A stretch of 64,000 nucleotides of DNA from Octopus vulgaris. Its lineage: Eukaryota. Location of the stretch: contig OX597814.1 in NCBI GenBank assembly GCA_951406725.2, positions 55,614,001-55,678,000 on the forward strand. The letters are read 5' to 3'. Shown here piece after piece: positions 11,202-58,785 of the stretch (position 1 is its first letter; every line of letters begins with the position of its first letter). A model generated the notes under the pieces. The model ran no database searches, had not been told where the DNA came from, and was given only the letters and a program-made list of their open reading frames with translations. Position numbers and translations under genes: made by a program.

Positions 11202-11253
11202 ATACTTTATTTAAAAGCAGCAGAAATATTTCTGCTGCTTTTAAATAAAGCAT
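11202..11253. repeat. About 50-bp hairpin at the start of a short insert ending in (TA)n
   Basis: ctttatttaaaagcagcagaaat|atttctgctgcttttaaataaag, with no loop. Confidence 0.8.
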
Positions 11254-11321
11254 ATTACTCTACCTATGGTATTTGAGTACTCTTTTTTCCACCTTGTTTC
11301 ACATTTATGTGCTTACTCCAG

Positions 11322-11353
<32 letters not shown>

Positions 11354-12641
11354 CACACACACAAATGTTTATATAAAGATTCCCTTTTGTCAAGAATGAC
11401 CATGGAATTGCACCTAAAAAGTTCTCTTTTGAGGCACATGTCCAAGCAAAGTTGTCTGTGGAAGACCAGCAGTTGCCCATGCATACCAGTCTTCTCTCTC
11501 CACATCAGTAATGTTGCAACTCATTTCTACAGCTGAGTGAACTGAAGCAATGTGAACTAAAATGTCACAATGCACAGCCTAGTCCAGGAATCAAACTCTA
11601 TGCCTGACACTCTAACCACTGAGACATGCACCTTCACCACATGCTTATATATATATATGCATGTACGTCAGGCCACTCTTACTATTACTGATACATGTAA
11701 CCAAGTATAATCTGTGGCACAATTGAGTCATTGGCAACTAAACCAGCAACCCTACCAAGGTTGCTTGGTTAGGGAAGTGGTTTGTTTTGCTGGACAAAAA
11801 ATAAAAAATAAAAAATAAAAAAATGAATGAAAACCTGTCAAAGGGCAAGTGAAACCAGTGGAGTCAACAGTTGGTCATCCAACAGCTGGGAACAAGAGAT
11901 CTTATTCTTTGTTTAAACAACTCTGTAGGAGAAGGAATACTATGGTACAAAACCTGCAACTTAGTTTGCATACAAACTAGTTCATTTTGAGCAAAAGCAT
12001 ATTATGTTCAGAAAATGGGATTAGCCCTGTGCAAAGCCTTTCTTAACTCTAAAATGCTTTAGTCTCAGGTAAAGTTTGATATTTTAAGATCTCGCTCAAT
12101 ATCTTGCGTACTGTGCAACAGGCAAGAGCTGAAAATGGCAAAACACTCAATGAAAAACTGCATAATGCATAAAAACATGTGTCAACAAGGGTGGTAAACT
12201 CTCTGAACACCTGCTGCAAAAGTCATTGATCATTGCTACATCTGTGCAAAATAGTGTTGGTCCTTAGTAGTACTGAAAATCTACATCTGTGTAGCACAAG
12301 TTTAAGAGAACAATCAAGCATTGGCATTACTTGAAATCAAGTTCCAGCTGTTATGCATGCATTCATGTACATATAGGTTTGGTAAAAGAAACTGGAGAAA
12401 TACAACAAAATAATGGAGTATATAAACAATTTTATAATTATTCTTAATCATCATGAAGTTAAGAATATTATTCAAAGGCAGAGAGTTTTATGTATAGTAC
12501 TTATGAAACTTACTTCAAGATGTCTGATAAGAAAAAAAACTGTGTGTGAGTGTGTGTATGTGTATGCATATATATATATATATGTATTGAAATATATTAA
12601 CTGAGGAAGGTCTTGCATAATGGGATGTATTTCCTATTGTA

Positions 12642-12856
12642 TGAGAGGGGATTGTAAAGTTTCTGGCTTTAAGGTATCATGAAAGGCCTGGCTGGAAGCC
12701 CAACCTTCTGAATTCTTTTACAAGGCTTAGAAAAGCTGAAGGACCATTGCAATAAATGTGTGAATCTAAGAGGGGGATATGTTGAGTAAAATCACAATTA
12801 ACTGATCCTCCTGTATTTTTTCTACCCAAAGCCAGGAACTTTTCAGCAACCCCTTG
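12642..12856 (+). mobile_element. Mariner-derived MITE
   Basis: TIR-like ends (GAGGGG..AAAGTTTCTGGCTTT / AAAGCCAGGAACTTTTCAGCAACCCC) and mariner C-terminus GLEKLKDHCNKCVNLRGGYVE*. Confidence 0.8.
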
Positions 12857-12930
12857 AATATTACACAGATCTGAAACATACATATTAAATGCTTTCAAAA
12901 TATCATTATTTGGTTTGACTTCATTACTAC

Positions 12931-13000
<70 letters not shown>

Positions 13001-13055
13001 GAAATAAATACCAATTGTGGATGGACACACACATACATACATACACATAAATATA

Positions 13056-14048
13056 CAGGGTGCCTCCAAAAATATGTATACACACATTGAGTGATTATAA
13101 AGTCAGTATTTGCTAAAATACATTCATTTTCATAATTTACAGTATTTAATTTCCTTCTGAACACCTGTTTGATAAAATCTCATTATTATGGTAGTGTGGA
13201 TATGCCCCTTCTTGCTGACAATAAAACCCCACACCTTCAAAGCACTCTTGAATGCTTGACATAATAGATTGTCATAGCAAGTTCAAGTAAATGGGACCAG
13301 TTACAGTATTGTCAAAAAAGAATGGTCCAGTGAATTCTTTTGATGACAAGTCACACCATACTGTAACTCCTGGTAAATTAACCTGATACAATATGCAGAT
13401 TCTTCAAGTGCTCAGAAAGTGCAACTGTAGCAATTAATTAAGCGATCTAATTAAAATATAACCTCACCCCTCCAAACAATATGTGTTGGTAAGTGAATAT
13501 CTATCTCTTACACATCTTGTCAAGATTAACCTGCAACACTCTGTTCTTCAGTCTGAATCATCTTCATTGAGAGCATGGACTATTCTTGAAACTTTTCCAA
13601 TGACAATGCTTCAAAATGCAATGAACTCTTTATTTTAAAATTGCTATCTCACAACTAGCTGGCTGAAGAGTTTCCTGAACTCTGGCAAAATATTTGTTGT
13701 ACCCTTTACCCTTTTTTGTTTTTTAGAGTTCAATGATGTCTGTGAGCTTCCAGAACATTTCTTGTCAACACTCTGAAAGTTCCATCTAATTCAAACTTAT
13801 CTCTAATTTGAGTGATGGTAAATCAAAAAGATGGAGATATTTGAAACTCCCTTCTAAATTGTCTTTATACTTCTACACCATTTTCAAACTTCCAGCAGCA
13901 TTTTATGATAAATTTCTTTTCTTCGAATCTTAGTAAGGCTCTCTTCTTTATTTCTAATGGATTAAGTCTAAAAAAAAAAAAAAATGAAAAACAAGGGAAT
14001 TATCAGCTTTTAAAGTGTTTATTCTCTAAGGTGGTGGCAGGCACCCTG
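13056..14048 (-). mobile_element. Decayed Tc1/mariner-superfamily transposon
   Basis: TIR CAGGGTGCCT / AGGCACCCTG; minus-strand fragments FEEKKFIIKCCWKFENGVEV*RQFRREF and [28 protein letters not shown]. Confidence 0.8.
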
Positions 14049-14296
14049 CATTTTGTAGGCATACAGTGAAATTGTAAAGATCTTTTAGAAAATAACTGAT
14101 AGGGAATGAGCAATGTTCCATCTTGTGTGGGAATTTTCTGCTTGTTCCCTTGTGTTTTTTTCAATTTTGGAACTTATATGTATATATATATATATTGTAC
14201 CAGCATGCACCACCCTTCTCACTCAACGTCAAGACTTGTGTAGGAAAATTTTTCTTAAGATTAATAGACAAACATTTTACACACACACACACACAT

Positions 14297-15082
14297 AGAT
14301 ACAGGCATTTGTTTGACAGGCACAACCTAAGAATCTCCTTTAGTTGTGCACCTAACATAAAAAAAACATTTTATCAAGTACCCACAATACAAGGAAGGAG
14401 GCAGGTTGCTCTTGCAAGGTATATAATAATTATCCAGTAGGAGGTCAATGTGAGGCTGAAGGGGTCATATATGAGGCTACAGTGATACCTAGACCTAATA
14501 TCCACAATAACAGTAATGTAACATCGAATAGCAGCATTATTAGCAGATTAACCAGGTCTCATGCCAATACAGTTGCCGTGCCCAGAGATAATAACCAAGC
14601 TAGAACCAGCATCACAGAGAATGTCACTTAAAATCCCGGTACAACCGCCATGGATAATGAACAAACCAAAGATACAGATAGAGTGACCAGTACAAACTCC
14701 ACACCTCGAAATAATGACCTATCCAGAACCAACGACTTGGAGGAGGTATCTGCCATTCCCAGTTCTGCCACCTCAGATGAGGACCAAACATTCATCTTCG
14801 ACACTGATGGGATGACCAGCCCCATGTTATATGCTATCAGGAGTGCAAATAAGGTCACATTCCATGTTTATAAATGTATTGGTTCAGTGAGTACTTCATT
14901 CAAGAAATGTTTTCTTAACCATCAATCATCCTTCAGAGTCCCAGAAAGATGGTTTGTCACATCCCTGGCCCACTAAGTGTATTACCTCAAAGACCAAGGG
15001 ATCCTGTGTGATGTCAAGTGGAAATTAAGTGATTTTCTGGGCCCATATTTTAATGGAAGTGGCTGTTGCAAGATCTGCTAAA
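14297..15082 (+). pseudogene. PLE C-terminal fragment (RT tail + GIY-YIG) with long insertion
   Basis: RHLFDRHNLRISFSCAPNIK, then CSC...YPVGGQCEAEGVIYEATV, ~130-aa low-complexity insert, KCIGSVSTSFKKCFLNHQSSF...TSLAH*VYYLKD...VKWK...YFNGSGCCKIC. Contains stops and a frameshift. Confidence 0.75.
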
Positions 15083-15892: not shown

Positions 15893-18298
15893 TGTAGCAA
15901 ATTACAAAACAACTGTCATCTCACCTTTCACTCCACTTTTCTGGAACCTAGTAATAAGGAAAAACTGAAGATAATCAATCTTTCAACCAAACCTCTTTCT
16001 AACATAAACATTGACATCCTCTCAAAAGGGCTCAAATTTACACCAACTCCACGCAGAGCCAACCTAAATGAAATCAAGGATAATATAACAGAATTTTGCA
16101 GAAAATTAAGACTAGCAGAAGCATCAACCAGTTTCAATACTGAAGATGAATCACTAGTCAAGAACAAAAGTGAACACATCCCCCACAGAGGAAGAAATAA
16201 AGATCTTGACGAATTCTGTAACCACATTGAGAACTTTCCCTACCATACTATACATAAACAGAAAGTTAACTCAAATTTTAACACTACACAATGGAAGGAA
16301 CTGATAGAACTTCAAAATGATGAAGATATAACCATTAAGGAAGCAGACAAGGGAAATGCAGTTGTAATAATGGATACATCATACTATAGAAATCTTGTAA
16401 TTTCCTTGCTTGATGACAACCAACATTATGAAAAAATTACCAACTACACCCCACAAAAAATAATGAAAACTCTATCTTCACTAATTAAAACCCATGAAAA
16501 GGAACTAACAACCAAAGAGATTGACTTTCTAACAAACTTTAAATGCAAACCTAGCCTCTTCTATGGTCTGCCAAAAATTCATAAAAGCCAAATTATAAAT
16601 GAAACCATTAAAAAATCACCAAAGACATACATACACACACCTAACCCAGGGGACCTAAAACTACGACCCATTGTAGCTGGCCCAACCTGTGAAACACACA
16701 GACTAAGTCTATTTATGGACATCCTCCCGAAACCCTTACTTAAACATATCGATAGCCATATCAGAGATGACTTAGATATGTTAAACCACCTTCCAAAAAA
16801 AGCCAAGGAAGAAACAATCATGGTTTCATTTGATGTAGTTAACTTATATACCAGTATACCTCATAATTATGGACTAGAGGCAATACAGTTCTGGCTGGAC
16901 CAATTTCCGGAAGAAACACCAAAAAGGATCAGTAAAGAATTCATTACTAAATCAATTGAATTCATCCTACATAATAACCACTTCATGTTTGACAATACAT
17001 TTTACTGTCAAAAATCCGGAATTGCTATGGGTACAAGGGCAGCACCAGTCATTGCGAACCTAACAATGGGCTACCTGGAAATAATCATTTACCAGGAATC
17101 TTTATCAATCTTTGGAAACCCCCTCTCTCAATACATAAAAGAGAATTGGAAACGATTCTATTTTATACTCTGGAATGATAAACTCCTAAAATTTAAAAAC
17201 CTATTGAACAGCATAAACCCAAATATACAGTTCACAATGGAATACAACCAAAAGGAGCTCCCATTCTTGGATATACTAATTAAAAAAATTAACCTTAAAA
17301 TAGAAACAGACATCTTTTACAAAGCCACAGACGCCAAACAATACCTTCTTTTTAATTCATGCCACCCAAGACACACTAAAACAAACATCCCCTTCAACCT
17401 TGCAAGAAGGATATGCACAATAGTGTCAGAACAAAATACCAGGAACTTTAGACTGCAAGAACTCAAAAACACCCTAATTGACAGACATTACCCAGCTCAA
17501 CTCATAGAGGATGGGATCAGACGTGCAACAGAAATCAACATAGAAACTTTAAGAAAAGTTCAACACATCAACACACCTTCCCCGAAAATACTACCTTACA
17601 TATCCACATACAACCCCAGAAACAAAGAAGCCTTCACCATCATCACCCAGAATTTACCAATACTTCATAAGGACCCCAAACTAAAGGAAATTCTAAACAT
17701 ACACCAAATCATTAAAAGCTACAAACAACCTAAATCACTTAAAAAGATTCTCACAAAGGCAAAATTGTTTTCTGAAATTACGGATGCAAAAGTAAAAAAA
17801 TGTGGTAGACCGAACTGTGCAACATGTCGATACCTACTAGAAGGATCAGAATTCCTCTTCAAAGAGGGACAGAAATTCAAGATCAAATCTAATTTTACTT
17901 GTGCCTCTGAAAACATAATTTACGTCATAAAATGCTCGGGCTGCCACCAAGACTACGTGGGGTCCACGGGACTATCACTCAGATGTAGATGCACACTGCA
18001 TCGACAACAGATTGCATTCCCAGAATACAGAATGATACCCTTTAGTAAGCACACTGAGAAATGCGCAAAGCAACTACTACCACAATTTTTAATCTTTCCA
18101 TTTTACCAATGTGCTATTGGAACACCAACACAAATTAGACTAAACAAGGAAACATTCTTCATTGAAAAATACAAGCCCAAACTTAACCATTCCAACATAC
18201 TTTTACAGAGAAATTCACTCCAAAAGAAAGGAAAAAAAATTTTAAGCGATTATCTCCCTTACACCAGAAGAAATCACTTATTACCTCCCCTTATCTAG
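15893..18298 (+). CDS. Penelope-like retroelement ORF (RT + GIY-YIG endonuclease, Neptune/Naiad-type), 5'-truncated, RT motif C deleted
   Basis: Frame is open from 15893, well upstream of the listed ATG at 16370. Contains IINLS...LSKGLKFTPTP, the PLE DKG motif IKEADKGNAVVIM, FYGLPKIHK, LRPIV, motif A SFDVVNLYTSIP, motif B QKSGIAMGTRAAP, LPFLDI, Cys linker CGRPNCATC and GIY-YIG IIYVIKCSGCHQDYVGST. Confidence 0.95.
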   Translation, partial: CSKLQNNCHLTFHSTFLEPSNKEKLKIINLSTKPLSNINIDILSKGLKFTPTPRRANLNEIKDNITEFCRKLRLAEASTSFNTEDESLVKNKSEHIPHRGRNKDLDEFCNHIENFPYHTIHKQKVNSNFNTTQWKELIELQNDEDITIKEADKGNAVVIMDTSYYRNLVISLLDDNQHYEKITNYTPQKIMKTLSSLIKTHEKELTTKEIDFLTNFKCKPSLFYGLPKIHKSQIINETIKKSPKTYIHTPNPGDLKLRPIVAGPTCETHRLSLFMDILPKPLLKHIDSHIRDDLDMLNHLPKKAKEETIMVSFDVVNLYTSIPHNYGLEAIQFWLDQFPEETPKRISKEFITKSIEFILHNNHFMFDNTFYCQKSGIAMGTRAAPVIANLTMGYLEIIIYQESLSIFGNPLSQYIKENWKRFYFILWNDKLLKFKNLLNSINPNIQFTMEYNQKELPFLDILIKKINLKIETDIFYKATDAKQYLLFNSCHPRHTKTNIPFNLARRICTIVSEQNTRNFRLQELKNTLIDRHYPAQLIEDGIRRATEINIETLRKVQHINTPSPKILPYISTYNPRNKEAFTIITQNLPILHKDPKLKEILNIHQIIKSYKQPKSLKKILTKAKLFSEITDAKVKKCGRPNCATCRYLLEGSEFLFKEGQKFKIKSNFTCASENIIYVIKCSGCHQDYVGSTGLSLRCRCTLHRQQIAFPEYRMIPFSKHTEKCAKQLLPQFLIFPFYQCAIGTPTQIRLNKETFFIEKYKPKLNHSNILLQRNSLQKKGKKILSDYLPYTRRNHLLPPLI

Positions 18299-18505
18299 AA
18301 CTTTTCTCAACATAAACATAACGATAACTCTACTCAACGTAAACATAACGACGTAAGAAATTTGAAAAGCTGAACGCGAAACCGGTCATTTCTTCTAAAC
18401 TATGTCATTGTAAGAAAAAAATTTATAACATTCTTCAGACATATTGACTCATATATATTTTTTAACCTTTTAAAGCAAACCTTCTGTAGTTTTTTCACTT
18501 TTTAC
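15930..18505 (+). mobile_element. Penelope-like element, 5'-truncated, with 3' UTR hammerhead, followed by (TA)n
   Basis: ORF above plus about 200 bp of 3' UTR ending at a long (TA)n tract. Boundaries approximate. Confidence 0.85.
18355..18394 (+). ncRNA. Minimal type I hammerhead ribozyme, U3-A8 core variant
   Basis: AAGAAAT-TTGAAAA-GC(TGAAC)GC-GAAA-CCGG-TC-ATTTCTT: perfect 7-bp helix I, 2-bp helix II, palindromic ACCGGT helix III, in the PLE 3' UTR where minimal hammerheads are typical. Confidence 0.75.
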
Positions 18506-18512
18506 TATTTTC

Positions 18513-19112: not shown

Positions 19113-19700
19113 GTATATACATATATATATATATGCACATATATTCACAATAATATTAAACAGTGAGAATGATTGCTCTGCATCAGTGGATGAATAATCT
19201 TTATTTGTGAATTAACAAGACAACAAATGCTTTCATGTGGAAAAGATCTTCGCAACTATTCAAGTGAACCACTTGAGAATATTGATATTTCTCTCTATTT
19301 TTGATTAAGGCTCTGTGGTTGAGAAGTTCAGTTCCTCGCCATGTTGCATTGGGTTGAATCCCAGTCTACAGCTCCTTACGGAAGTATCATCATTTATAGC
19401 TCCAGGCTGACCAATGCCCTGTGAGTGGATATGGTATACAGAGACTGCAAGAATACAATACTGTATGTGTGCATGTGTGTGAGCGCGTATGTGTGTGTGT
19501 GTGTGCATGCATGTGCATGTGTGTGTAGTTAATTGTGAGGAATTATCAGTCTAGGAAAAATACACCAGGTTAACAACATTGTTTAGATTAGTGAAGAACT
19601 CCAAGTATTCTTATGGCAGGGTCCAAGGTTATGGTTCATCACAATTCTATATTGTAAATCTATGGTTGGGCTCCAGACAAACTGGTTTTTACACAGAGTG

Positions 19701-20002
19701 ATATATAAGACAAGGTATAAATAAGAGTCATTAGATATTATTCCTTTATTAGAGCAAATTTGGCTTACAGCTGTTTCCAGTAGTCATTATAGTAATTTCT
19801 GGTTATAACCCAAAATACCTCTGAGGAAAGTAGCATTGATTTTTTTTTAAGCTCGGTCAATTTTTCTCAAGTAATCAATAGACCAATTGAGTAAACCTAT
19901 CAGTAACATACCTATAATGATTACTGGAAACAGCTGTAAGCCAAATTTGCTCTAATAAAGGAATAATATGTAATGGCCATTATTTATACCTGGTCTTATA
20001 TA
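19701..20002 (+). mobile_element. Miniature foldback element with hammerhead-like motif
   Basis: About 92-bp inverted arms (19701-19792 / 19911-20002). CTGAGGA at 19821 and GAAA-CAGCTG-TA at 19927, with AGTAGCATT/AATGATTACT able to close a long helix II. Ends in (TA)n. Confidence 0.65.
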
Positions 20003-20086
20003 TATATAGGTATATATATACATTGGTATGGTGATGCAAACAGGAAAAATAGATCTCAAAATATGAGCATACGTATATTTTTATTA

Positions 20087-20183
20087 ATATTTAGCAGAAG
20101 CATCAAAGTGACTCAAGGTCTGTGAATTTTGTGCCAACACATGCAACTCTCAAATCTTGAGTCACTCTGTAGCTTCTGCTAAA

Positions 20184-20187
<4 letters not shown>
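20087..20187. repeat. Short foldback (about 31-bp arms) next to (TA)n
   Basis: atatttagcagaagcatcaaagtgactcaag versus cttgagtcactctgtagcttctgctaaaatat. Confidence 0.7.
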
Positions 20188-20247
<60 letters not shown>

Positions 20248-20695: not shown

Positions 20696-20752
<57 letters not shown>

Positions 20753-20809
20753 CAGTAAATCATAAATCCGAAAGTGAACACACTCTAAGTTACAGAACAG
20801 TAGAGTATT

Positions 20810-20959
20810 TATATAAAAATAGATATGACCAGTCTATGAGGTAACCCAGGGTTTTGTGTTCATAAAGCACTTAGCTTTACAGAGCCTTAGTTGTAATGTG
20901 CTTTACAGACGTGAAACCCAGGGTAACCCCATAGACTGGCCATGACTATCTTTATCTAA

Positions 20960-20962
<3 letters not shown>
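20810..20962. mobile_element. Miniature foldback element with hammerhead 3' half
   Basis: About 60-bp imperfect inverted arms; the right arm reads GAAA-CCCAGGG-TA-ACCCC. Lies between (TA)n tracts. Confidence 0.55.
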
Positions 20963-28062: not shown

Positions 28063-28455
28063 TAAAGATACACATGTGCAATGTCATCCATGTCTACACT
28101 CATGTATACATATCTACATATTGATATATATACATACTCACACACACATATAGGCACATATACATACACACACACATATATATATACATGTATATGCATA
28201 TATGTATACATATATACAAATACATATACATACACATTTATATATGCAAATATATACATATATATACATACACACACATACACATATATATGTATACATT
28301 TTATCAATGGCCAGCATATTAAAAAATACCTTTAACGGTTAAATTTATAAACAATTCATAGCGTGCGTATTGTGAAAAAATTATAATATGCTGGCCATTG
28401 ATAAAATTTTTTTTGAGAAAATATATTTTTTTTCGAAAAGAATTTTATCCTCACA

Positions 28456-28971
28456 TCTATATATATAAAACTGTAGTTGTGTGAGTGTCTGTCTCCTACG
28501 ATTTAGGTTCCTAACTCCTCCCACATTTTGCGGTGCAGTTTAACCAAATTCGGGTATCTTATAGTCGTGATTAATATCGAGCCCGTCTGGCTATTAGCGC
28601 GCGTCTACGATGAGTCTACGATTTAAAAAATAATTTAACATCATTTTTATTCCATTTTAATGCATAATTTTTCGTGTGTCGATGGCGGCGGAGTTGGCGT
28701 CCACGCTCAAACACCTGCACCTGTGTTTGCTTCTCCCCCTTCTTCCCTCCTTCGTGAAGCTGTGGGGAAGGGAGTTTAAGGAAATCAACGTCGTAATGCG
28801 TTGTCAAGGAGACCAGCGTTCTTTTAGAACAACGACTTCATGGCTTGAAGACACCAAAACAGAAATGGCTAAGAAAGCCCGAATTGGCATCTATAAAGGA
28901 AGTAACTCTCTAAAAATGCTTATATAGTTATTTCTCTTACAAACCCGAGCAACGCCGGGCGATACTGCTAG
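28456..28971 (+). mobile_element. Non-autonomous Helitron, complete
   Basis: 5' TCTATATATATAAAA after host A, subterminal GC hairpin CCCGAGCAACGCCGGG, 3' CTAG followed by host T. No TSD. CpG-rich, so probably young. Confidence 0.9.
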
Positions 28972-29170
28972 TTTGATATAAATTTAAGCGTTCACTTCCA
29001 AACTAACTAACTCACTCTGTGAGAGCCTCAGTTCAAATCGCACGTGCCTCGAATGGGCTGGAGTATTTCTATTTTGGATGTATTTGGGGTACTTATTTGT
29101 GCCCATGACTTAATATTTGCTTCTTCCATGGGTATAAGTAAGTATCTCATTTATTTCTTTTACCACATGT

Positions 29171-29221
29171 ATCACTGACGAAGAGAGGGCCCTTAGTAGC
29201 TAACTCTGAAATCGGTCCGAT
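29171..29221 (+). ncRNA. Minimal type I hammerhead ribozyme
   Basis: ATCA-CTGACGA-AGAG(18 nt)CTCT-GAAA-TCGG-TC-CGAT: full core and 4-bp helix II. Helices I and III each differ by one CpG-type change from ATCG/CGAT and ACCGGT. Flanking TACCA/TGGTA extends the pairing. Confidence 0.7.
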
Positions 29222-29314
29222 ATGGTAATAATGGAATTTTTAGAAATTTCTGTCGACCTTTTTTCGAGTAGCTTATTGTGAAAAATTATATCTATCTATC
29301 TATCTATCATTATC

Positions 29315-29398
<84 letters not shown>

Positions 29399-29509
29399 TT
29401 TATATAATTAAGAGAAATAACCTCTATTAAGTAATTCAATAGTGAAAGACTTTATCTATATCAGATAAATATTATTCAAAAAATCACTAAATTGAATTAA
29501 CATTAAATT

Positions 29510-29607
29510 GACTACGTGCGTTGCGTGATTATATCTTTAAATCGATAATAATAAAATTGATACCATTAAAATTTATTCGATTTAAAAATATAGCCACTCT
29601 TCAGGTC
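29510..29607 (-). ncRNA. Hammerhead ribozyme with ~73-nt helix II (GAAA mutated to GCAA)
   Basis: Minus strand: GAC-CTGAAGA-GTGGCTATATTTTTAAATCGA...TCGATTTAAAGATATAATCAC-GCAA-CGCACG-TA-GTC. Confidence 0.65.
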
Positions 29608-30556
29608 TAAAGTAATAAAATAAATGTATGTATCTTAACACATAATAAATGAATATAGAAATATACATATATTAACTATAAATAATCAAATAAAATATAC
29701 CAATATTAATGAAAAATAAAATCATAACTTATCTTATTGAATAATTCCAGTTAACTGAAATTTTAAAAGTTATACTTAGAACCTAGTGTTGCTAAGAAAT
29801 TTATCACGTAAATTGAAATCTAATGGAATCAAGTATAATTTAAATTGGGAGGTAGTTTGTAAAGCTAAATCTTATCGAATAGGTAATAATTTTTGTTTAC
29901 TATGTACAAATGAATTTATGGAGATATTATAAATCTAATAATAAAAAGTTGGTTAATTACAAGATGAGCGAATAATTAAATGTAGACATAAGTTAAATTA
30001 CTTATATAAGTTTAGCTAATTTGTGTATATATTTAAACCCTGATTGATGTTACTAATTTTTGTAGTTATAATTTGTAGTAGCATAATGAGCATAAATTAG
30101 CAGTAGATTATGTAGTGTGTATTACATAAGTGGAATAAGATTAAACCAAGATGTTTATAACATAAATAAATTGATGAATATAGATTAAGTTATCGAAATT
30201 TAGTTTATTTTATGTATTTTACGTATTTTAGTTTTCAATTATTGAGAATTTTGAATTTTTCCAGTAAACGGTATATTACATCTAGTTTATTTCTTATTTT
30301 CACAGCTAAAATACATTTTTCTATTTGTTTATTTTATAGTTATTATTTACGTCATGTTTTCATGTGACAAATCCTTAGGTTGTAAGTACAACGTTTAAAG
30401 TTTCAGTTAACAGGAATTCTTCAATAAGATAAGTTATGATTTTATTTTTCATTAATACTGTTATATTTCATTTGATTATTTATAGTTAAGATACGTATAT
30501 TTCTATATTTATTTATTATATGTTAAAATACATACATTTATTTTATTATTATTTTA

Positions 30557-30670
30557 GACCTGAAGAGTAGCTATATTTTTAAATTGAATTAATTTTAAAT
30601 CGAATTAATTTTAATAGTATCAATTTTATTATAATCGATTTAAAGATATAATCATGAAATGTGTATAGTC
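30557..30670 (+). ncRNA. Hammerhead ribozyme with extended helix II (sister copy)
   Basis: GAC-CTGAAGA-GTAGCTATATTTTTAAAT...ATTTAAAGATATAATCAT-GAAA-TGTGTA-TA-GTC. Core intact; a ~16-bp tandem duplication lies inside helix II. Confidence 0.65.
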
Positions 30671-31901
30671 AATTTAATATATATTTAATTCAGTGATTGT
30701 TTTTGAATAATATATATTATAGTATAATTTTTCTATATGATATAGATAAAGTCTGTCACTATTGAATTATTTAATAGAGGTTATTTCTCTTAATTATATA
30801 AATATATTATATATTGTGAAATTTGATTTGGAGTTGCTAAATTGAATTTTTCCCTGTAAGTTTGGAATTATATTCCCCACTATTATTATATACATACATA
30901 TATATATACATACATATATACATACACACATATATACATACACACACATATATACATACATATATATGCATACATACACACATATATATACACATATATA
31001 CATACATAGATAGATACACATGTATGTACATATATATATATATATACATACATACACATATACATACACACGCACATTTACACACATGCACATTTACACA
31101 CATATGCACATACACATATTTATATATTTTATTCTGGAGAGGGGTTGGCTCTTCTAGGCTTAAAAATGCCTCAGTCACAGTGTCTGCTATGGTGACACCT
31201 CTATAACTCTATCAGGAGTTGAGGGCCCAAGCAATGTCAGGCATGATCTATCTCCTATATTGTTTATTCATCTAAATATCATTAGAATAATTTTAATAAT
31301 GCAAACTAAGCTAGAATACTGGCTTAGGATGAGATTTACGCAATATTATCACAATTCATGGATGTGTATATTTAATTTATGCATATATAGCTTTGTCTAC
31401 AAACTGACACTTATTTAATTTTTAAAACAAAGTTTCTTGAGTATTACTATTCTGTAGTAAACAAATGTTACTGGTAAGTTCATACAGGCTGTATTAATAC
31501 ATGCAACCAATTGTTTCACTAACAAAAAATACTACACTTATAGATTTAAGAAGAGTATAATTTGAAAAAATTAATCTTCAATATTAATGAATACTTGCTT
31601 CAGCTAATATTGTTTTTATCTTCCATTTACAATAAAAAAGAAAAAATTCTAGTTATAACAGGTTAATAAAATACAGTATAGCAATAAGTAATCAGGAAAT
31701 TTATTTTGTTTGCTAAAGAGTTGAGTAGATCATTGGGACAAAGATATGAAAGTAGACATTAGAGATTATTTAATGATCTAGTAAGCCTTCACAAGAAACT
31801 TGTTAGAAATGAATTCAAGAAAGAACCATAGTCCCAGAATAATGCCAAAACTTTTGAAATAAAAATGTGTTAGATATATCAACTATTCATGCTTATTATA
31901 C

Positions 31902-36107: not shown

Positions 36108-36153
36108 AACACAACGTTTCCGCTGATATACCCTCCAGCCTTCATCAGGTGTC
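36108..36153 (-). ncRNA. Minimal hammerhead ribozyme (left arm of 36-37 kb palindrome)
   Basis: Minus strand GACAC-CTGATGA-A-GGCTG(GAGGGTATAT)CAGCG-GAAA-CG-TT-GTGTT with palindromic AACGTT helix III, preceded by a 13-bp tandem duplication of GACACCTGATGAA. Confidence 0.7.
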
Positions 36154-36184
36154 TTCATCAGGTGTCTAAGGTATTTTTCGGTGA

Positions 36185-36233
<49 letters not shown>

Positions 36234-37271
36234 GTTCAGGTCACTGCTTGGAATCAAACTTGGAATCTTGGGGTTAGTAGCCTGCACTCTTAACCACTAC
36301 GCCATATGCATGTGGGTAATTATGGAGTGAATTTTAGGGCTTATAAATCTAATATTTCCCTATCCTTCCTTGATACCAGTTCCCATATGCTGCTCATATC
36401 TGCTTAAGAGATTGTTGTATCCTAGCATATGTGCTGCTTCTTTTAGTTTTTGTATTTTCTGGTAGTGTTCTCTGTCTATTATTTTAACTTCATCCCACAA
36501 GGGGAGATGGTCTCCATTTTCCCATACATGATCAGCTATAGCTAATTTATCAATATCTCCTTATGTCACAACTTTGCAATGTTCATCTACCCTTATTTTG
36601 AGTGTGGGGCATGTTTTGCCTTTGTGTAACCTACCACAGCTGCATAGGATGGAGTACACGCAGTCTTTGGTCATATTCTCTTCTATTGGTAGTTTTACTC
36701 AAATACTTCACAAGTATCTACTTTGAGCAAAACCACAAATAGAAGAGAATGTGACCAAAAACTGCATATACTCCATCCTATGCAGCTGTGGTAGGTTATA
36801 CAAAGGTGAAAATGCTCTCCCACTCAAAATAAGGGTAGACGAACATCACAAAGCTGTAACATGAGGAGATATTGATAAATCGGCTATAACTGATAATGTA
36901 TGGAAAAATGGAGACCCCCTCTCCCTATGGGATGATGTCAAAATAATAGACAGAGAACACCTCTGGAAAATATGGAAACTAAAAGAAGCAGCACATATGC
37001 TAGGACACGACAACCTCCTAAGCAGACCGAATGCTGATATGAGTAGCATATTGGAACCAGTATTAAGGAAGGATAGGAAAATATTAGATTTATTAGCCCT
37101 AAAATTCACTCCATAATTGCCCATGGGCATATGACATAATGGTTAAAAGTGTGGGCTACTAACAACAAGATTCCGAGTTTGATTCCAAGCAGTTACCTGA
37201 ATGATAACAATAATAATAATAACATCGAAAAATACCTTAGGAATGAGAACCTAGGTTTGAAATCTCCCCAA

Positions 37272-37314
37272 GTAACCTGATGAAGGCTGGAGAGAATATC
37301 AGCTGAAACATGTT
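37272..37314 (+). ncRNA. Degenerate minimal hammerhead (right arm of 36-37 kb palindrome)
   Basis: CTGATGA-A-GGCTG(GAGAGAATAT)CAGCT-GAAA-CATGTT, with a small deletion in the helix III/cleavage region relative to the left arm. Confidence 0.55.
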
Positions 37315-37529
37315 AACAACAAACAAGATGAGGACAAGTATTCGTCAAATGTAAATAATGTACCAAATCTTATGTATCTGAGAAAGAGTTGGCATAAAAA
37401 ATTACACATTTTTGTATATCAAAGTTCAATCTATTGGTAAATTTTTACTTTGCAGGATAAAAACAGTATCAGAGCCACCCAAGCAGTACAAATGTGAAGA
37501 TATATCCACACACACATGTGCACATTCAT

Positions 37530-38375: not shown

Positions 38376-38469
38376 CCGTAAGAAGACTGTCCATTTGTAA
38401 TTACTCGCACTACATATAAGACGCATGTTAATACTTTGATAACTAAATTGAAAATTCTAATCCGTAAAC
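38376..38469 (-). CDS. KCNT (slo-2): Exon of Slo2/KCNT-family channel, S1 transmembrane helix
   Basis: 94-bp exon with a strong acceptor (tttctttttcttttAG) and donor GTAAGT. A|GT joins to give S-LRIRIFNLVIKVLTCVLYVVRVITNGQSSY(G), matching KCNT1 [26 protein letters not shown]. The intervening intron is about 14.8 kb. Confidence 0.95.
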
Positions 38470-39351: not shown

Positions 39352-39388
39352 CTTAGCGTCCGCTTTCCATGCTAGCATGATATACATA

Positions 39389-39612
39389 TATATTTGGAGA
39401 GAAGGTTTTTCTCAAAAGTTAAGATTGAGAAAAGAACTTTTAGAAAGTCAAAAGACACTAACCTTTGGGAAGAGTTTCACAAAATGTGTGTAGGCTTTGC
39501 TTTTACACACATTTTGTGAAATCTCTTCCCAAAGGTTAGTGTCTTTTGACTTTCTAAAAAAGTTCTTTTCTCAATCTTAACTCTTTGAGAAAAAAATTTT
39601 CTCTCCAAATAT
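39389..39612. repeat. Near-perfect ~220-bp palindrome
   Basis: Arms of about 105 bp (ttggagagaagg...aaaatgtgtgta / tacacacatttt...ctctccaa) with an ~11-nt loop. Confidence 0.9.
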
Positions 39613-39644
39613 TATAACTGTATCAAGGAATTTCCAACACACTC

Positions 39645-41715: not shown

Positions 41716-44216
41716 TTCTCCTTTCAGAAATAATTAGCAATGTTCACATAATGGAGAAACCCAGTAATCATCATATCACAAATGAATTCCATGAGGAAAA
41801 CAATGTAATTATAAGTTAGAAAATGCTGATTTAATGTTATTCCTGTGCAATACACATGTGTAAATGTTAATGTTGTCCCTGCCAAATTTAGAGTAAGTAA
41901 TTTTGATTTTAATAATGAACACTGCCAAAAGAAGAAAACAAAAACAAAAACAAAAAGCAATCCATAGAATTCTGTATAATGATTTGTTATATTACTCAAT
42001 TGAAGCAAATCTCCAGCAGACCATAAAGGAATTGCTGAAAATATGTCATTCATTCATGCCTGTTTTGTTGTTCATAAGAACTTTAAACAGACTGGAGTAA
42101 AAAATAAACTGACACCAACGTTCTTTCAAGATTAAAACTTACTATGTATTATAGAAATAGTTTCCATCAATACTTTTTATTTCTCACCTGCTAACCATGG
42201 TTATATAAGTATTTCACATAGGTTGTAATTTTGTGCTTACATTCAGTCACATTTAGAGAAATGGACTGAGATGTGTGATGTTTTAATCTTTTTTATTGAA
42301 AGGTGTGTAAAATATCATTGTAGTCAACCCTGTTGCTTGCATCTAATGTAGTAGGTTTAACATGCAAAAGTTTCAGCATTTTAAAGATTTGTTTGGGAAA
42401 TGTAAGTTCAATGTAGGGTGAAAAAATTAAGTATTAGAAGAATACTTATTCTGTAAAACTGCCCAGGTTTCATTTGATATATACATATGTACATATTGTT
42501 TGATAGATACATATATGTATCTATCAAACAAATGATAGAAATTTTAAATTACATAGGTGATTGGTTTCATTTTCAGTGAATGTCTTTGACTTCTTTTCTG
42601 CATTACTCTTTGATATGGAAGTAATACAATGAAAACATTGAAAACATTCAAAGACAAACTGGTAATAAATAGTGGACAGAGGCCTATAGAATTTTAATAG
42701 GCACTCTAGAATTATGTGTTCAGGTTAGCTGTACAGCTAACTGTTTATTAAGTCTGCTAGAGTGATTTGATAGTTTCATATATTGCACTGCATATATGAG
42801 TAAGTAGATAAGATTCCTTAAAGTAGTATTTTAGGCAGAGTTTTACTTTAGAGTGTCAGAACACTCTTCTTTCCTCAACACTAACATTATCCATCCTTTT
42901 TTTTTCTTAACTAAGTAAACTAATTTTTCCTGGTAAATTACAACAAATCTCTCGAACAGAAGACTTCAAAGAAGTATAGAAGTAGATAAAACAGATATGT
43001 AAAAAGATCTTTTACTCTCAAATAACAAAACTATTTCCCAAAGTTATATGAATGTTATTTATAAAAAAAAACAAGAAAAGAAAAGAAAAAAGAAAACTTT
43101 ATTTAATTTCCCTCAGTACAACTAGAATACATCTCATAATTGAGTATTGTTTATTAAGCTTCCTTTTAACTTTGGTACATTTTTCAAGAAAAATTAGCTT
43201 ATGCTGAAAAGGAATTTTTTTTAATCCCATCATCTAAAGAATAATCACTTTTCTTTTCTCTGGTGCTATGAAATTACTGAACCAGCCATGCTACTTCACA
43301 ATAATTGAACAAAAGTTAAAACACGTGAAAACTGCAAAACAAATTGGGATATTATAATGTAGTGAGAAAGTAAAAGCTAAAAGTAGACCTTTTTCTTTTC
43401 TGTAAGTAAAACATTTATGAATTTCGAATATGTGTAAAATCAGCTATCATAGGAAAGAATACTATCAATTAACTACTGCATATTACTGGTATTGTTGATA
43501 TCAAGCTTGGAGCAAAGAAAAATAAAATCAACATAGAAAATATTTGTACTCAAAACATAAATAGACAAAGCAACTATGGAGGAAATTACTAAACAAGAAC
43601 TGTACATCAGATCATTTTCTATCCTGATCTGTAAATCCAGGTTCCCAAGGTAAGACAGAAGGATAAGATGAAAGAGTGTAATGATAGGGGAAGGAAAAAA
43701 CATTGCCAAGATTAGGGAGAGTCAGAATGATAAGGGAATAAGGAGGAGGTTGAATAGGAAGTGATGCAGTGCTACCCCACATTATATATGCATAGGTAGG
43801 GTGCTAGATAGGAGAGAAAGCTGATGATGAAAGGCTAGGGGCATATTCTCAAGATAAGACATCCAAGACAGACTGGTGACAGAGGAATCAGGGAGGGTGG
43901 ATAAAGTCTGCCAGAATAGAATCCTTTCTCACCCAAACATCACAATTCAGGAGGGTAACAGAGTATAGATGGTGGAGGATTGCACAAATAACATAATTTC
44001 CTCAGTCATGGGTATCATGGCATGGTGAGAAGAAATGACACAGAATAGGTAAACTGGTTAGGAGAGTACATGATGGTATGTGATGGTACAGAGTGGGTAC
44101 CAGACTAAGCTTGTATGAGAAGTCAAGTCTTCTGCAGCACTGTGTGTCACAAGCTGATAGAGTCAACTGTGTGTATGTGTATATGCATGTATATGTATAT
44201 ACATATATATATGTGT

Positions 44217-46903: not shown

Positions 46904-47942
46904 CAGGACGCAATGAATAAATTGTCATCTAAATTACACAAAAATGAAAATAACACTGACATCTCATTTTAACAGATATATTTCCCCAAATTACACAAAA
47001 ATATCTTGAAATACTAAAGAGTAAATTTATTCAATAAAATCGCCATTGGCTTCAACCACGGTATCCAGACAACTTTGGAATCTCCTGCAACTCTTCTGGA
47101 TGGTCTCCTTGTTTAAGTTGGTGAATACTGCTGTAATCCTTGCCTTCAGTTCATTTTTGGTGTTACAAGGAGTTTTGTTGGTCTCTTGCTCAACTTCACT
47201 CCACACATAATAATCAAGGGGGTTGCAGCCTGGGGAGTTAGATGGCCAGATGTTAGAGGTGGTGTGGTTGCAGAAATTGTCTGACAACCATGACTGGATT
47301 TACCTGCTTGCATGGCATGGTGCAGAGTCTTGTTGCCAGACATTGGGTTTTCTAGCAGCCACCCTCTTGACCCAGGGCAGCACTATCCCCATCAAGCACT
47401 TGATGTAGGCCTCTGTGCTGAGTCTGAGGTCATGTGGGATGATGAATGGAGTGGCCGTTTCTCATCTTGCATGAGGAATACTGAATGTCTTCAGGCACTA
47501 CCTGGCTGATCAGACACTCCCATGTCCCTGGCGATGGACCTGATTGACTTGGAGGCATCATTGTCAATCATGGACTGGATCTCACCAACAAATTCAGGAG
47601 TTCTTTTCTTATCAGAATAATCAGAGTGAATTTTCCAAGCTGCTATACCTTTGCAATCACCATTAGACTTATCCAACTCTTTCCAAATCCTCTGCACTGT
47701 CCTCAGATTGACACCCAAACACTCTGAAATGTTTGTACTGGAGCTTCTAGCATGAATGCCAAGCAGTACAGCATGCCATTTCCAAATTTCTGGTAGAGTG
47801 AATTGCATCATGGTGCTGTTTTTATCACAGATGGTGCCCAACTGACCCTACTATACTGTGTAGTTGACAAAATCAAAAACAAACAATGTGCATGTGCAAA
47901 ATCAAAAATATAAAATGGCAACAATTTACCAATCACCACCTG
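46904..47942 (-). mobile_element. Tc1/mariner-superfamily transposon (maT/DD37D-like), internally deleted
   Basis: TA-flanked imperfect TIRs (CAGG..AAATTGT); HTH region ISECLGVNLRTVQRIWKEL...SIRSIARDMGVS and WPSNSPGCNPLDYYVW...VVEANGDFIE. Confidence 0.9.
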
Positions 47943-53253: not shown

Positions 53254-53333
53254 TTGATCTCTGGTTCTTTATGAAATAAAGTTGCAATCTTTCCTTAAAA
53301 GACTTCTCATTTGTGAAAAATTCTACTCTAACC
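53254..53333 (-). CDS. KCNT (slo-2): Exon of Slo2/KCNT-family sodium-activated potassium channel (N-terminal cytoplasmic segment before S1)
   Basis: 80-bp exon bounded by ttttcAG and GTAAGT on the minus strand. Translates (R)[26 protein letters not shown], matching the KCNT1/2 motif [27 protein letters not shown] as I recall it. Ends in phase 1, in frame with the next exon. Confidence 0.95.
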
Positions 53334-54565: not shown

Positions 54566-54910
54566 AGCAATAATGATTGCTACTGATACCATGAATGGTG
54601 ACTTAATAGGTTAAGTTTTAATCAATGGCAATGTATATTTTTCTGATAAATTAGAGCAATTTCAAAGCAAATAAACACAATAACAGTGAAATATCAGCCC
54701 ACCAGATGACACCAGAAAAAAAATGTATTTCTCATATTAAACAGGAATACAGTGAAAATATTGATTCAATAAAGCATGAAAAACGAATAGATTAGGAGTG
54801 GATACATCTTAAAATGAATGCTGAGATTTTAACCAATCTCTGGTATCTGTTGTACACCAGGTTTCTTTCTTCTGATACCAAAGCCTCTCACTCATATTTG
54901 TAGCAGCTCT

Positions 54911-55125
54911 AAGGTGACAAGATGGCAAAATCACTACCGCACTGAACAAAATGCTTGGTGGCATTTCTTCCATCTCTTTATGTTCTGAGTTCAAATACCA
55001 CTGAGGTTGATTTTGCCTTTCATCTTCTGGGGGTTGTTAAAATAAATACCAGTCAAGTACTTGGGTTGATGTAATCAACTTGCCTTCTCCCCTCAAACTT
55101 TCTAACCTTGTGCAAAAATTAGAAA
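54911..55125 (+). mobile_element. SINE family B
   Basis: Aligns by eye with 27849-28062. Confidence 0.8.
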
Positions 55126-55289
55126 GGCTTATTAGCTCTATTGGTTTACACACAATGCTGTTGTTTATTTTTTCATTTATAGTTTCAATATTAACATCAA
55201 ATAGTATTTAGTAATGGCACTTTACACTCATATCTTGTTGAGGTCAACTTAATTTTCATTTTTCTAGGGTTGATAAAATAAAATAGTGG

Positions 55290-55650
55290 GTACAGGTGTA
55301 GCTGTATGTTAAGAGGTTTGCTTATAAACCGTATAGTTCCAGGTTCAGTTCCACTACATGGCAACTTGGGCAAAGGTCTTCTACTATGGCCATGGGTTGA
55401 ACAAAGTTTTGTGAGTGAATTTGATTGATGGATACTGAAAAACGATTGTTCTGTGTGTGTGGGTGTGTGTGTGTTTGTCTCCTCACCACTGCTTGACAAC
55501 TGGAGTTGATTTACTTACATACCTGATAAAATAAGTAGCAAACTTAAAAAAGAAAATACTAGGGTCAATTTACTTAACTAAACCCTTCAAGGTAGTACCC
55601 TAGGATGCATACAAGCCAGATTACTTAAAACAAGTGTAAGGCAAAAGATA
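55290..55650 (+). mobile_element. SINE family A, diverged
   Basis: Head, body and tail motifs. Confidence 0.7.
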
Positions 55651-56215
55651 AGAACCGGAATTAGTTTGTCTTCAATTACCTCCAAAATCGATGGCCTTAT
55701 GCCATTATTAAAAATCAATATTTTCAAAGTCAAGTTTTGTAGAAATTAACATGATTATTTTACCCCTGTGTTTGATAAATTTTGACATTATTACCTGGAG
55801 AGTTGATATCATTAAGTGCTTTGGATTGGATTCAGATTCATTTATTCTTTCTATGACATGATTTGATTTAATCATGCATTTAAATAGACAATCTTAATGT
55901 TTAAAAAAGAAAATATTGACCATTTCAAAGAGGAGACATTACTGCATAACCCCATTGTATATGTAGAAAGTGTCAGGTCTTATAAAATATTCTACATTAT
56001 TAGAACAAATCTGAGATAGAAAAGAGATAAGTCAAATGATGAAATCCAAACCACTCATTTTAATATTTCATTTTTAACTGCTATATTTGTCTCAGAAGAT
56101 AATTAGTCAGTCGTGCAGCATAGTAGAAGAGCTTAAACTCAATACACACAAAACACTGTGTGTGTGTGTGTGTGCATGTGCACAAGTGTGTTTGTTTGTG
56201 TGTGTGTGTGTAGCT

Positions 56216-56548
56216 TTTATCCTTTACTTGTTACAGTCATTGGATTATAGCCGTGCTAGAGCACCTCCTTGAAGGTTTATTTGAATGAAGCAACCCCAGT
56301 ACTTACTTTTTTTAAAGCCTGGTAGTTATTTTATTGATTTCTCTAACTGAACTGTTAAGTTACTGGGATGTAAACTAACCAACACCAGTTGTCAACACAC
56401 ATCTACACATATATATGAAAGGCAACTTTTAGTTTCTGCACCAAATTCACTTACAAAGTTGTGGTCAGTCTAGGGCTACTGCCATGCAGTGGAACTGAAC
56501 CTGGAGCCATGTGGTTAAGAAGAAAACTTCTTACCACACAGCTACACC
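56216..56548 (-). mobile_element. SINE family A, diverged
   Basis: Reverse-complement head and tail motifs. Confidence 0.75.
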
Positions 56549-57049
56549 TAAATCTAAATATATGTATGACTGTGTATTCTGTGTGTGTGTTATTACACAC
56601 ACAAGCACATACACACACACACACATGCACACATACACACACACACACAAGATTAAGAGTTTCACACAAGTATATTAAAACACAAAAAGAAAATGCTTTG
56701 AGAACTTTATCATGCAGAAAACTCACAAAATATTTACATTTTTATGTAAATATTTTCTTCCTCCTATTCATGATAAAATTCTTGAGGAATTTTTGAGTTA
56801 TATTTATACATGGTTAATACTGCTTCTGTTACTAATAGCAAGTGATTTTTCAGTTACTGTTTTACTATACCAGTAGTAGTTGATTTTGTTTTAGCATACA
56901 GGTGTCAGTGAATACTTGTTACTGATGAAGTTCAAAGAGTAAAAATACATATTAGCAATGTCACCACTGCTACAGGGAAACTTTTGGTTGCTACTGATAT
57001 ATTTCTGTTTTTAACACTCTCTCTCCCACTTATATATATATATATATAT

Positions 57050-57283
57050 CAGAAATATTGTTATATTTCGGAATGGTCATTTTGCCAGTTTAGCCAATAA
57101 AAACACACGCACTATATATTTGGTGTTACTTTGCTTCAGTGTTATTTATTTTTTACATTAATCTTAATCTTATTTGGGCCAGAGTCCTTTCGTCACACTC
57201 CTGTGACCGCATCAGTGGTCCTTTGTTTTTTGTTTTATTGGCTAAACTGGCAAAATGACCATTCCAAAATATAACAATATCTG
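57050..57283 (-). mobile_element. Miniature PLE-type foldback element with internal hammerhead
   Basis: About 54-bp near-perfect inverted arms (57050-57105 / 57231-57283) around a hammerhead, with (TA)n next to the 3' end and a TCTGTTTT(T)AACAC direct repeat at 57004-57017 / 57280-57292. Confidence 0.75.
57177..57220 (-). ncRNA. Minimal hammerhead ribozyme with A9C change
   Basis: Minus strand GACCA-CTGATGC-G-GTCACA(GGAG)TGTGAC-GAAA-GGAC-TC-TGGCC: perfect 6-bp helix II with tetraloop, helix I CCA/TGG. Confidence 0.65.
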
Positions 57284-58785
57284 TTTTAACACAAGACTTC
57301 ACATAAAAAATCTTGCACAACAAATATATAAACGTATATAAGAAATAATTTCTCAAAACGAATATCAGTCTATAAGGCTTTAATGATGTATCTGCTTTAA
57401 GTGTGTAACACAGGTTGCTATTTTGAACTGATATTGTTTCTGTCACTGATAAAGCATGCGCACACACACACACACACACACACATAAACTCACTAATGTT
57501 CAACATAGATTTGACAATAGAGAATATTCTTATGAATCAGATACAATTTAATCTGTCCTGCTAATGTAAGTAACTGACTAATTATATTGTAAAGATAAAA
57601 AAAAGAAATTCTGTAGTGCTGTTAGGTACATAGTCACTCAACAAGCTACCGCAATCATGGTTCAGACAACATTAGTGGGTCTGTTTTCCTTTACATATTT
57701 AAATCTTAATTTAGTCTGCTTTACACCAAATTCTCTCCAATACAACATTTTACCTTCTTTTCTAAAACTTTCAATGAATTGATTTTATTTGTATTATCCC
57801 CCTTCTTGTTTTTGAATTTTAAACACTCTTAAAAGAAGGTTTTGTTTACTAGTTATATGGATAATGTCAATAAACTGCAAATTTTCTGTTCACTAAATTA
57901 CATGTGTAAGACCTTACTGTATTTGCATTTAGTACGCAGAATGCTCCCTTCAGGTATTTGTCTTCAGTCATATTGTAATTCTTAGGATGTCTAATAATAT
58001 TTTACATTAACAAATTTTAGCATTTAATTCATTATAATTTGATTTAAAGCTCATTTCTTATTGCAAATATGAAATCAAGGTAGTGCACCTACCTCTGTAT
58101 GTGGGTCATTTGTGTACATGATATATAATAACTTATACAGGGAGTTCAACCACCTTGGGTTCCCTTCAAGGAGTACCCTCTGTTACAGGCAATTAGCTCA
58201 GGTTATCCATTTGAGGATACCTTCTACCCACCCACTAATCTCTTGGAGGGCTATGGACGCTATCTTTTCCTAGACAACCCTGCTCCCCAAACTTTCCTAA
58301 AAATACAGCCTGACTAATTTCCTTGTAGAGACAGAAATAACACAAATGAAAATAAAATAGCAGAAAAAACAGTAATTTTACTTGATTCAAAATAGAAAGT
58401 TTAATAGGTACTCTGTAGTGAAATATTTTATAATGAAAACCATAGCAGTTAATTCATTCATAATTATTTCATAGAACTTTACATCAAATGTCATGATATT
58501 GATAACTTTCAAATATCTTTTATTCTTACAAGAAATGAACATTTAATTTAAAGATTGCTTCCTTCAGGCTATATTTTGAATTAGAAACCAATGCTTTGAA
58601 GTTAATTTTATTGTTCATTTCTGATAGATCTTTGAAGTTTAAGAGACAAAAGTCAGTAGCTATTTTAACCAATATATAGTTTATTTATTTATATTTAGCT
58701 TAGTTTATTTTATAACATTTTAGAAATAAAGAAGACATTAAAGGAAATAGAAATTGGGAAAGGATTCTGACTATAAAATTAATAA

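Follow-up and report, generated by a model that had tools for sequence, protein, structure and literature searches.

A stretch of 64,000 nt from the Octopus vulgaris genome (contig OX597814.1 of assembly GCA_951406725.2, positions 55,614,001 to 55,678,000; the window, with positions counted from its first letter) holds nine foldback inserts, each with an inverted arm adjoining a direct arm. We read them as 5′-truncated, head-to-head insertions of nine hammerhead-bearing families, mostly traceable to Penelope-like elements (PLEs), with the foldback likely arising from one source RNA that was primed twice at integration; we give this reading a probability of roughly 0.7. The foldback architecture and the opposite-strand ribozyme pairs are already published; new here are a counted rule for the two outer ends, a retrozyme-like family that obeys it, and a tRNA-type head in a terminal repeat. 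The original prediction of foldbacks at these places, made from the letters alone and tentative for the one at 39389, held for all nine: self-BLAST found an inverted repeat at each (E from 1e–69 to 0.002, weakest at 28300), and one filter gave 12 distinct foldbacks in the real window vs. 0–2 in ten block-shuffled windows.

Two fixed ends and variable turnaround points

Each insert was searched against its own genome (2.8 Gb), with 91–3174 first-look candidates per search, of which 40 were scored and 30 loci kept; after removal of the loci in the window itself and of one that could not be mapped, 289 loci were analysed. The nine inserts represent nine different multicopy families, named here by window position. 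An inverted arm adjoined at 140 of the 289 loci and was absent at the other 149. In none of the nine families did loci agree in their turnaround point, which marks the copies as one-off insertions rather than a fixed miniature family; nor, with nine separate families, is the proposal of a single size series of miniatures supported. The outer ends were fixed, each family having one short 3′ end (A) and one tail-bearing end (B). Among 109 scorable foldbacks, A was paired with B in 102, while five were AA (two of them with tail remnants) and two were BB. Where the query had forced one arm to be B, its partner was A in 25 of 27 cases, and AB pairing was also seen in two long elements (L442 and L443). 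The tail-bearing arm is the left one in the window inserts 19701, 20087, 20810 and 36024.

That the inserts end at microsatellites, as first described, is usual for most families and fails for F36024, none of whose 72 ends lies at a TA repeat. In F36024, an anchored duplication of at least 7 bp accompanied 12 of 20 AB foldbacks, compared with 13 of 380 mismatched control pairs; these target duplications vary (7–15 bp) and enclose the whole foldback. Wherever duplications are readable, the foldbacks are single integration events. At one place (L065/L213), F11202 and F29175 insertions lie tail to tail within one TA repeat, indicating shared targets.

The 5′ ends cluster, just upstream of the hammerhead core in F11202, F19701 and F20087 and at the tRNA-type head in F36024, and the resulting similar-sized copies are what might be expected of fixed-structure non-autonomous families moving as whole foldbacks, either as RNA elements or as miniature inverted-repeat transposable elements (MITEs). 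This explanation is already largely refuted and we regard it as highly improbable: junctions vary by locus in every family, more than half of the relatives lack an adjoining inverted arm, the target duplications run from 7 to 15 bp, and relatives extend into open reading frames (ORFs) for reverse transcriptase (RT) and endonuclease. The variable junctions and duplications together with these coding links exclude MITEs, and with the many solo arms they led us to reject transposons with terminal inverted repeats generally, in keeping with the original prediction. Its further suggestion, that annotation would mislabel the small hairpins as MITEs, is disfavored by a curated O. vulgaris annotation that lists 186 kb of MITE vs. 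191 Mb of PLE (PMC13282606, supplement), if this genome is comparable.

In the scheme that we favor, the element's RT-endonuclease, probably a dimer, would nick AT-rich or (TA)n DNA on both strands. Each nick would prime one cDNA on the same source RNA, one starting from site A and the other from site B, and the two cDNAs would be joined at their 3′ ends, through microhomology or after one of them snaps back and switches to the other. Short copies would likely stop where the source RNA begins, and the protein-free 504-bp family (F29175) would be copied from a multimer or circle and likely mobilised by PLEs in trans. In twin priming by L1, two nicks prime two cDNAs that are joined by microhomology inside one target duplication, with arms that do not overlap. 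The two-nick, one-duplication scheme is shared, whereas in the present foldbacks the two arms usually have the 3′ region in common and start at two fixed sites. A Poseidon protein, predicted to be a dimer, cleaves and extends both strands in vitro, with starts at two internal sites, one on either side of the tail (PMC11167929).

Insertions of endonuclease-bearing PLEs have been described with an inverted pseudo-long terminal repeat (pLTR) and an optional tail (PMC3846280, PMC8557442), and ours resemble them in 5′ truncation, an adjoining inverted truncated copy, a one-arm tail, a variable target duplication and (TA)n targeting in the linker-bearing clades. Unlike in the accessible text of those reports, the one-arm tail is here counted over nine families (102 of 109), and tails run from ~30 to >100 nt rather than 30–40.

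Comparison of the two arms bears on how they were made. The A arm reached further 5′ in 51 of 88 comparisons, the B arm in 21, and 16 were equal; with A so often longer, neither arm simply copies the other. Arms overlapped by at least 2 nt at 67 of the 140 junctions. Non-consensus bases were common to both arms of one locus in 78 of 524 cases vs. 350 of 5957 across loci, a 2.5-fold excess (12 of 33 vs. 5 of 417 for F29175 arms); this shared-variant count replaced a polymorphic-site test whose anti-correlation in F29175 proved an end artefact. At the F36024 head, snap-back stubs of at least 8 nt were found in 12 of 30 copies (with a query biased toward stubs), centred on a natural palindrome, and several of these then jump into a B-ended arm. 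The stubs, the overlaps and the shared variants would all suit a single cDNA that was primed at B, folded back, copied itself and was trimmed by the endonuclease at A, its asymmetry coming from later deletion at the unstable centre; PLE origin would be kept. We judge this improbable, as it needs A nested in B, a condition that most cases violate unless they later lost their centres. The excess of longer A arms includes 22/51 where the search favored long B arms, several B arms are nothing but tail and break off near A (L114, L158, L048, L053 and L060), and a 3-nt indel was never copied to the partner arm. Less probable again is self-priming on an antisense transcript, put forward for rotifer Penelope elements from junction palindromes (PMC3846280) of the kind also present here; by itself it leaves the two fixed, regularly paired ends unexplained, and in vitro the template is sense RNA (PMC11167929).

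Several points weigh against double priming of one RNA. In the accessible account of the in vitro work, the two strands do not differ in start site (PMC11167929), so that the coupling of A with B is something we infer. Fully 85% of variants are private to one arm, the F36024 3-nt indel differs between arms in six of nine scored pairs and is never shared, and both the asymmetry and the sharing could be imitated by gene conversion or by later loss of central sequence. The counts also carry our choices: 31 of the 140 foldbacks were left unscored for an eroded end, end classes of F29175 were reassigned by hand for a reference offset, and the family samples are the 30 best matches each rather than random ones. 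Finally, F19701, F20087 and F29175 have no coding link among the DNA examined.

Coding links and hammerhead cores

In six of the nine families (F36024, F57050, F29401, F39389, F20810 and F11202), longer relatives carry PLE coding sequence upstream of the terminal repeat, bearing out the proposed PLE origin. F36024 relatives have a Poseidon-type ORF for RT and endonuclease, and the terminal repeat starts just after its stop codon; relatives of F57050 have Nematis/Neptune-type coding and those of F39389 Neptune-type; F29401 and F11202 relatives have a Hydra-type endonuclease, as probably does F20810 (an endonuclease fragment resembling that type). These clade names come from motifs, without a tree. 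By eye, L251, L416, L419 and L421 (of F11202 and F29401) show a CxCX5C linker, no CCHH, and CxxC and CxH around a conserved E and N, the motifs that define Hydra-type PLEs in PMC8557442, while translations of two F36024 loci (L037 and L049) show the Poseidon feature of no linker zinc finger ahead of the endonuclease. Pfam gave RVT_1 in L037 (E 5.8e–8) and GIY-YIG in L277 (E 3e–4, under the curated cut-off), with no relevant match in L111, L251 or L153. The GIY-YIG-type remnants predicted for the two largest inserts were also recovered: that at 29810–30007, in the tail arm of the 29401 insert, is of Hydra type and matches a relative's endonuclease at 74% (E 3e–25), and the 36024 insert likewise retains one. 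No coding link was found for F19701 or F20087 in 30 loci each with 1.5-kb flanks, and these two are assigned to PLEs only by core, two-end rule and TA targets. The window also contains, at 15893–18512 (+), a 5′-truncated PLE of Neptune type; it has an open frame of 801 codons in which Pfam weakly matches RT and GIY-YIG, lacks an inverted arm and ends at a TA repeat, and its 3′ end bears a clean minimal U3–A8 hammerhead (18355–18394) with a 7-bp stem I.

Hand-set motifs placed a hammerhead-like core in the consensus of all nine families, which agrees with the expectation that cores be conserved there; the core was identical to consensus in anywhere from 3 of 15 to 34 of 36 spanning arms, depending on the family. 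Within the window, both halves of the core occur in five inserts as first reported (19701, 28298 with its core at 29175, 29401, 36024 and 57050), and the 3′ half only in two (20087 and 20810) rather than one; inserts 11202 and 39389 have no core, though their families do. Two families are U3–A8 covariants, a type already reported in PMC4209133. Because of core changes, A9C in 27 of 31 F57050 arms and mostly U4C in F11202, hammerhead activity of these two families is doubtful.

Other searches were less sensitive or silent. A strict hammerhead descriptor found only the 29175 core; a second hit none of the 13 window foldback rows, 9 of 80 sampled foldbacks and 21 of 1000 random segments, and thus undercounts; the 150 Rfam matches listed, of 249, included no hammerhead; and, folded as monomers, four cores were not significantly stable and most had alternative folds. 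Cleavage of the host transcript seems unlikely, since in the pre-mRNA the mirror arms of 29401 and 36024 would pair with the cores on the minus strand, the 57050 core is changed and that of 29175 has the opposite orientation to the host gene.

The cores resemble the minimal hammerheads of metazoan PLEs (PMC4209133) in being type I, with a short or palindromic helix III, mostly in single truncated copies, and in their opposite-strand pairs 100–700 bp apart and U3–A8 covariant. They differ from what the accessible text of that report describes in the very long stem II (~75–95 nt) of some families and in the family-wide changes of F57050 and F11202. The start of many F19701 copies (L121–L150) is a CAG that follows a pyrimidine-rich tract and shortly precedes an ATG and the hammerhead; it resembles the intron end reported at helix I of Drosophila Penelope.

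A retrozyme-like family and a tRNA-type head

The F29175 unit is 504 bp long, its longest open frame is 54 aa, and it is the family whose core matched consensus in 34 of 36 arms. Its circular fold has –141 kcal/mol, vs. –100 ± 5.5 in 40 shuffles (z –7.6). By a strict motif, at least 10 of 30 copies cross the unit junction, the upstream sequence being that of the previous unit. Copies are dispersed, mostly at TA repeats, as one to four units, and all 14 scorable foldbacks are AB. The longest array, in L446, has four direct units and an inverted arm; in it (L446:4180–6063) a 28-nt deletion recurs in units 2 and 4, the pattern that repeated copying of a two-unit template would give, seen in this single example. 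RNA contigs from three runs with spliced mRNA cover the whole unit and place it in RNA, which read-through from the many copies in introns could also explain; its end-to-start joint exists in DNA tandems too.

By its sequence, F29175 fits the definition of a non-LTR (long terminal repeat) retrozyme, a non-coding tandem unit with a type I hammerhead in each unit, and because it obeys the two-end foldback signature without coding, it is likely mobilised by PLE enzymes in trans; that it is both a retrozyme and PLE-mobilised we consider quite probable. Here the original suggestion of mobilised non-autonomous ribozyme elements finds its clearest case, with short F36024 copies a possible second. PLE terminal repeats can form tandems, and no autonomous partner PLE was found among the DNA examined; of 2248 first-look candidates, 30 loci and three extensions were read, so limited a reading leaving some room for F29175 to be the duplicated terminal repeat of an unsampled autonomous PLE, or a satellite expanded at the DNA level. 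We think either unlikely in view of the previous unit upstream of the junction-crossing copies, the shortness of the longest frame, the dispersal mostly to TA repeats with AB foldbacks, and the stable circular fold.

F29175 is like metazoan non-LTR retrozymes (PMC7229834; bioRxiv 10.64898/2026.07.22.740005) in its non-coding tandems, type I hammerhead, low GC, high self-pairing and coexistence with PLEs, and unlike those in the accessible parts of the same sources in its size (504 bp vs. 170–400 nt) and in its dispersal as one to four units with the PLE two-end foldback signature. PLE mobilisation of retrozymes has been proposed from co-occurrence and phylogeny (same sources).

In the F36024 terminal repeat, A and B boxes (+8, +53) come first and an AAT repeat next, after which follow the hammerhead and then the two ends. 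The boxes have tRNA spacing, and no T4 run occurs in the 285 nt. Short F36024 copies are the 3′ 290 nt of the element: among pieces reaching the head region, 27 of 33 begin no more than 15 nt from the head start, and none of the 30 best head matches extends into the ORF. Among unselected F36024 matches outside the window, six loci begin at the head and three are long. ARAGORN called no tRNA in 17 loci and gave only an implausible call for the consensus at a 70% threshold, Rfam had no tRNA match in one F36024 locus, and a search for a marker of a short-copy lineage found no site with a shared change from consensus among 28 short vs. 30 long copies. Transcription by RNA polymerase III (Pol III) would explain the clustering at the head start, and so would full-length RNA started by Pol II, an alternative suggested by 5′ ends that also cluster near the core in families without boxes. 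It is possible, at somewhat under even odds, that the short copies are a PLE-driven short interspersed element (SINE) transcribed by Pol III. The element resembles the schistosome SINE-like hammerhead repeats Sm-alpha and Sj-alpha (PMC6765202) in having a Pol III-type promoter upstream of the hammerhead, and is unlike them, as far as that source's accessible text describes them, in that its tRNA-type head sits in the terminal repeat of a coding Poseidon-type element.

More tentatively, PLEs may breed two parasites: a 504-nt hammerhead circle copied by a PLE dimer from two internal starts, and Poseidon-borne Pol III ribozyme SINEs of 290 bp. The circle would need two internal start sites because it has no 3′ end. 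A literature search returned no report of retrozymes from cephalopods, of PLEs that use twin priming or of a pLTR with a tRNA-type head, though subscription papers, Repbase/Dfam and bioRxiv supplements may hold some.

The window, its host gene and wider meaning

Feature coordinates are collected in the table. The places originally given were right, with starts shifted left to 19562, 20029 and 20747 for three inserts and the right end of the 57050 insert at 57336; the earlier observation is thus confirmed with corrected coordinates, and its interpretation is supported in part. The ~56-bp hairpin at 11202 belongs to a 123-bp insert that has a 67-bp tail and is truncated below the hammerhead. The insert at 28298 is a foldback as described, interrupted by a 515-bp multicopy insert which we take to be Helitron-like and of which full-length copies occur elsewhere at 92–96%; neither end of this F29175 copy is at a typical family site. 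The 36024 copy is enclosed by a 13-bp duplication (36011–36023 and 37361–37373), with a short microsatellite between the left duplicate and the arm.

Coordinates of inserts, cores and host-gene exons in the window
Feature	Position	Strand	Remarks
F11202 foldback	11200–11322	+	A arm 11200–11229 (–), B arm 11226–11322 (+)
F19701 foldback	19562–20003		tail arm 19562–19792 (–), A arm 19799–20003 (+); tail end partly mapped
F19701 hammerhead-like core	19817–19942	+	motif; long stem II
F20087 foldback	20029–20190		tail arm 20029–20129 (–), A arm from 20131 (+)
F20087 core	within 20029–20190		decayed 3′ half of U3–A8 type
F20810 foldback	20747–20962		tail arm 20747–20882 (–), A arm 20898–20962 (+)
F20810 core, 3′ half	20911–20928		motif
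F29175 copy	28298–29291	+	inverted stub 28298–28360; direct part 28359–28456 and 28972–29291, spans unit junction
515-bp multicopy insert, presumed Helitron-like ends	28458–28972	+	later insertion splitting the F29175 copy, between A and T
F29175 type I hammerhead	29170–29227	+	complete core, palindromic stem III; antisense to host gene
F29401 foldback	29401–30890		A arm to 29812 (–), tail arm to 30890 (+)
F29401 cores	29510–29607; 30557–30670	–; +	motif; one core change in the first
F36024 foldback	36011–37373		tail arm 36035–36703 (–), A arm 36702–37362 (+)
F36024 cores	36109–36152; 37273–37314	–; +	motif
F36024 tRNA-type A-box/B-box head	37125–37186	+	in terminal repeat; decayed copy, better one at 36250–36309 (–)
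Host-gene exon, next	38376–38469	–	KCNT1 match; joined to 53254–53333 exon in RNA contigs, four runs
F39389 foldback	39378–39644	+	short arm 39378–39505 (–), tail arm 39505–39644 (+); truncated below U3–A8 type core
Exon of host Slo2/KCNT1-like K+ channel gene	53254–53333	–	KCNT1 match, RNA contigs
F57050 foldback	57055–57336		A arm 57055–57239 (–), tail arm 57233–57336 (+)
F57050 core	57177–57220		in A arm; family-wide A9C change

The host is a Slo2/KCNT1-like K+ channel gene on the minus strand: two window exons match KCNT1 (E 3e–7 and 8e–4), as does the pore exon 31 kb to the left (E 2e–22). RNA contigs from four runs cover only the 53254–53333 exon in its region and then continue into the 38376–38469 exon. 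The two exons split the region, and the nine inserts therefore occupy three introns of the K+ channel gene rather than the single one first supposed. Upstream of 53333 the contigs link the exon to several different sequences, suggesting alternative first exons. Enrichment of foldbacks in the window was considered and rejected, since the 12 in 64 kb compare with 80 in a regular 600-kb genome sample (~13 per 100 kb) and 23 in 200 kb of window flanks; that sample also held 43 clusters of the nine families, with seven foldbacks. Foldbacks are thus ordinary and very common here, and the position in channel introns is without special meaning. Most window copies are dead, and no effect on the channel gene is indicated; a role for the hairpins in its introns as ADAR substrates was considered and set aside.

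Elsewhere in the window, 7480–7630 is likely a tenth foldback family (a hairpin of 56 bp whose left arm carries a long tail, and relatives in L317 and L066), and further inverted repeats at 1761–2086, 42496–42531 and 56690–56793 had no relatives among the loci collected. The left flank of the 57050 insert (56998–57030) resembles the element's own A-site region, possibly through target similarity or as a remnant copy. A protein-like low-complexity frame with one in-frame stop and no Pfam hit lies antisense to the channel gene at 14356–14970 (+), and decayed frames with helix-turn-helix Pfam hits at 47030–47847 (–) are likely a DNA transposase remnant.

The origin of the inverted ends of PLEs and the PLE mobilisation of animal retrozymes are both called open questions in the literature consulted. 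The two-end rule makes a countable prediction for the existing in vitro Poseidon system and, since the 504-bp family follows it without encoding protein, supplies sequence evidence of PLE mobilisation that is independent of phylogeny or co-occurrence. If a PLE terminal repeat does carry a Pol III head, SINE biology would reach beyond partners among long interspersed elements (LINEs).

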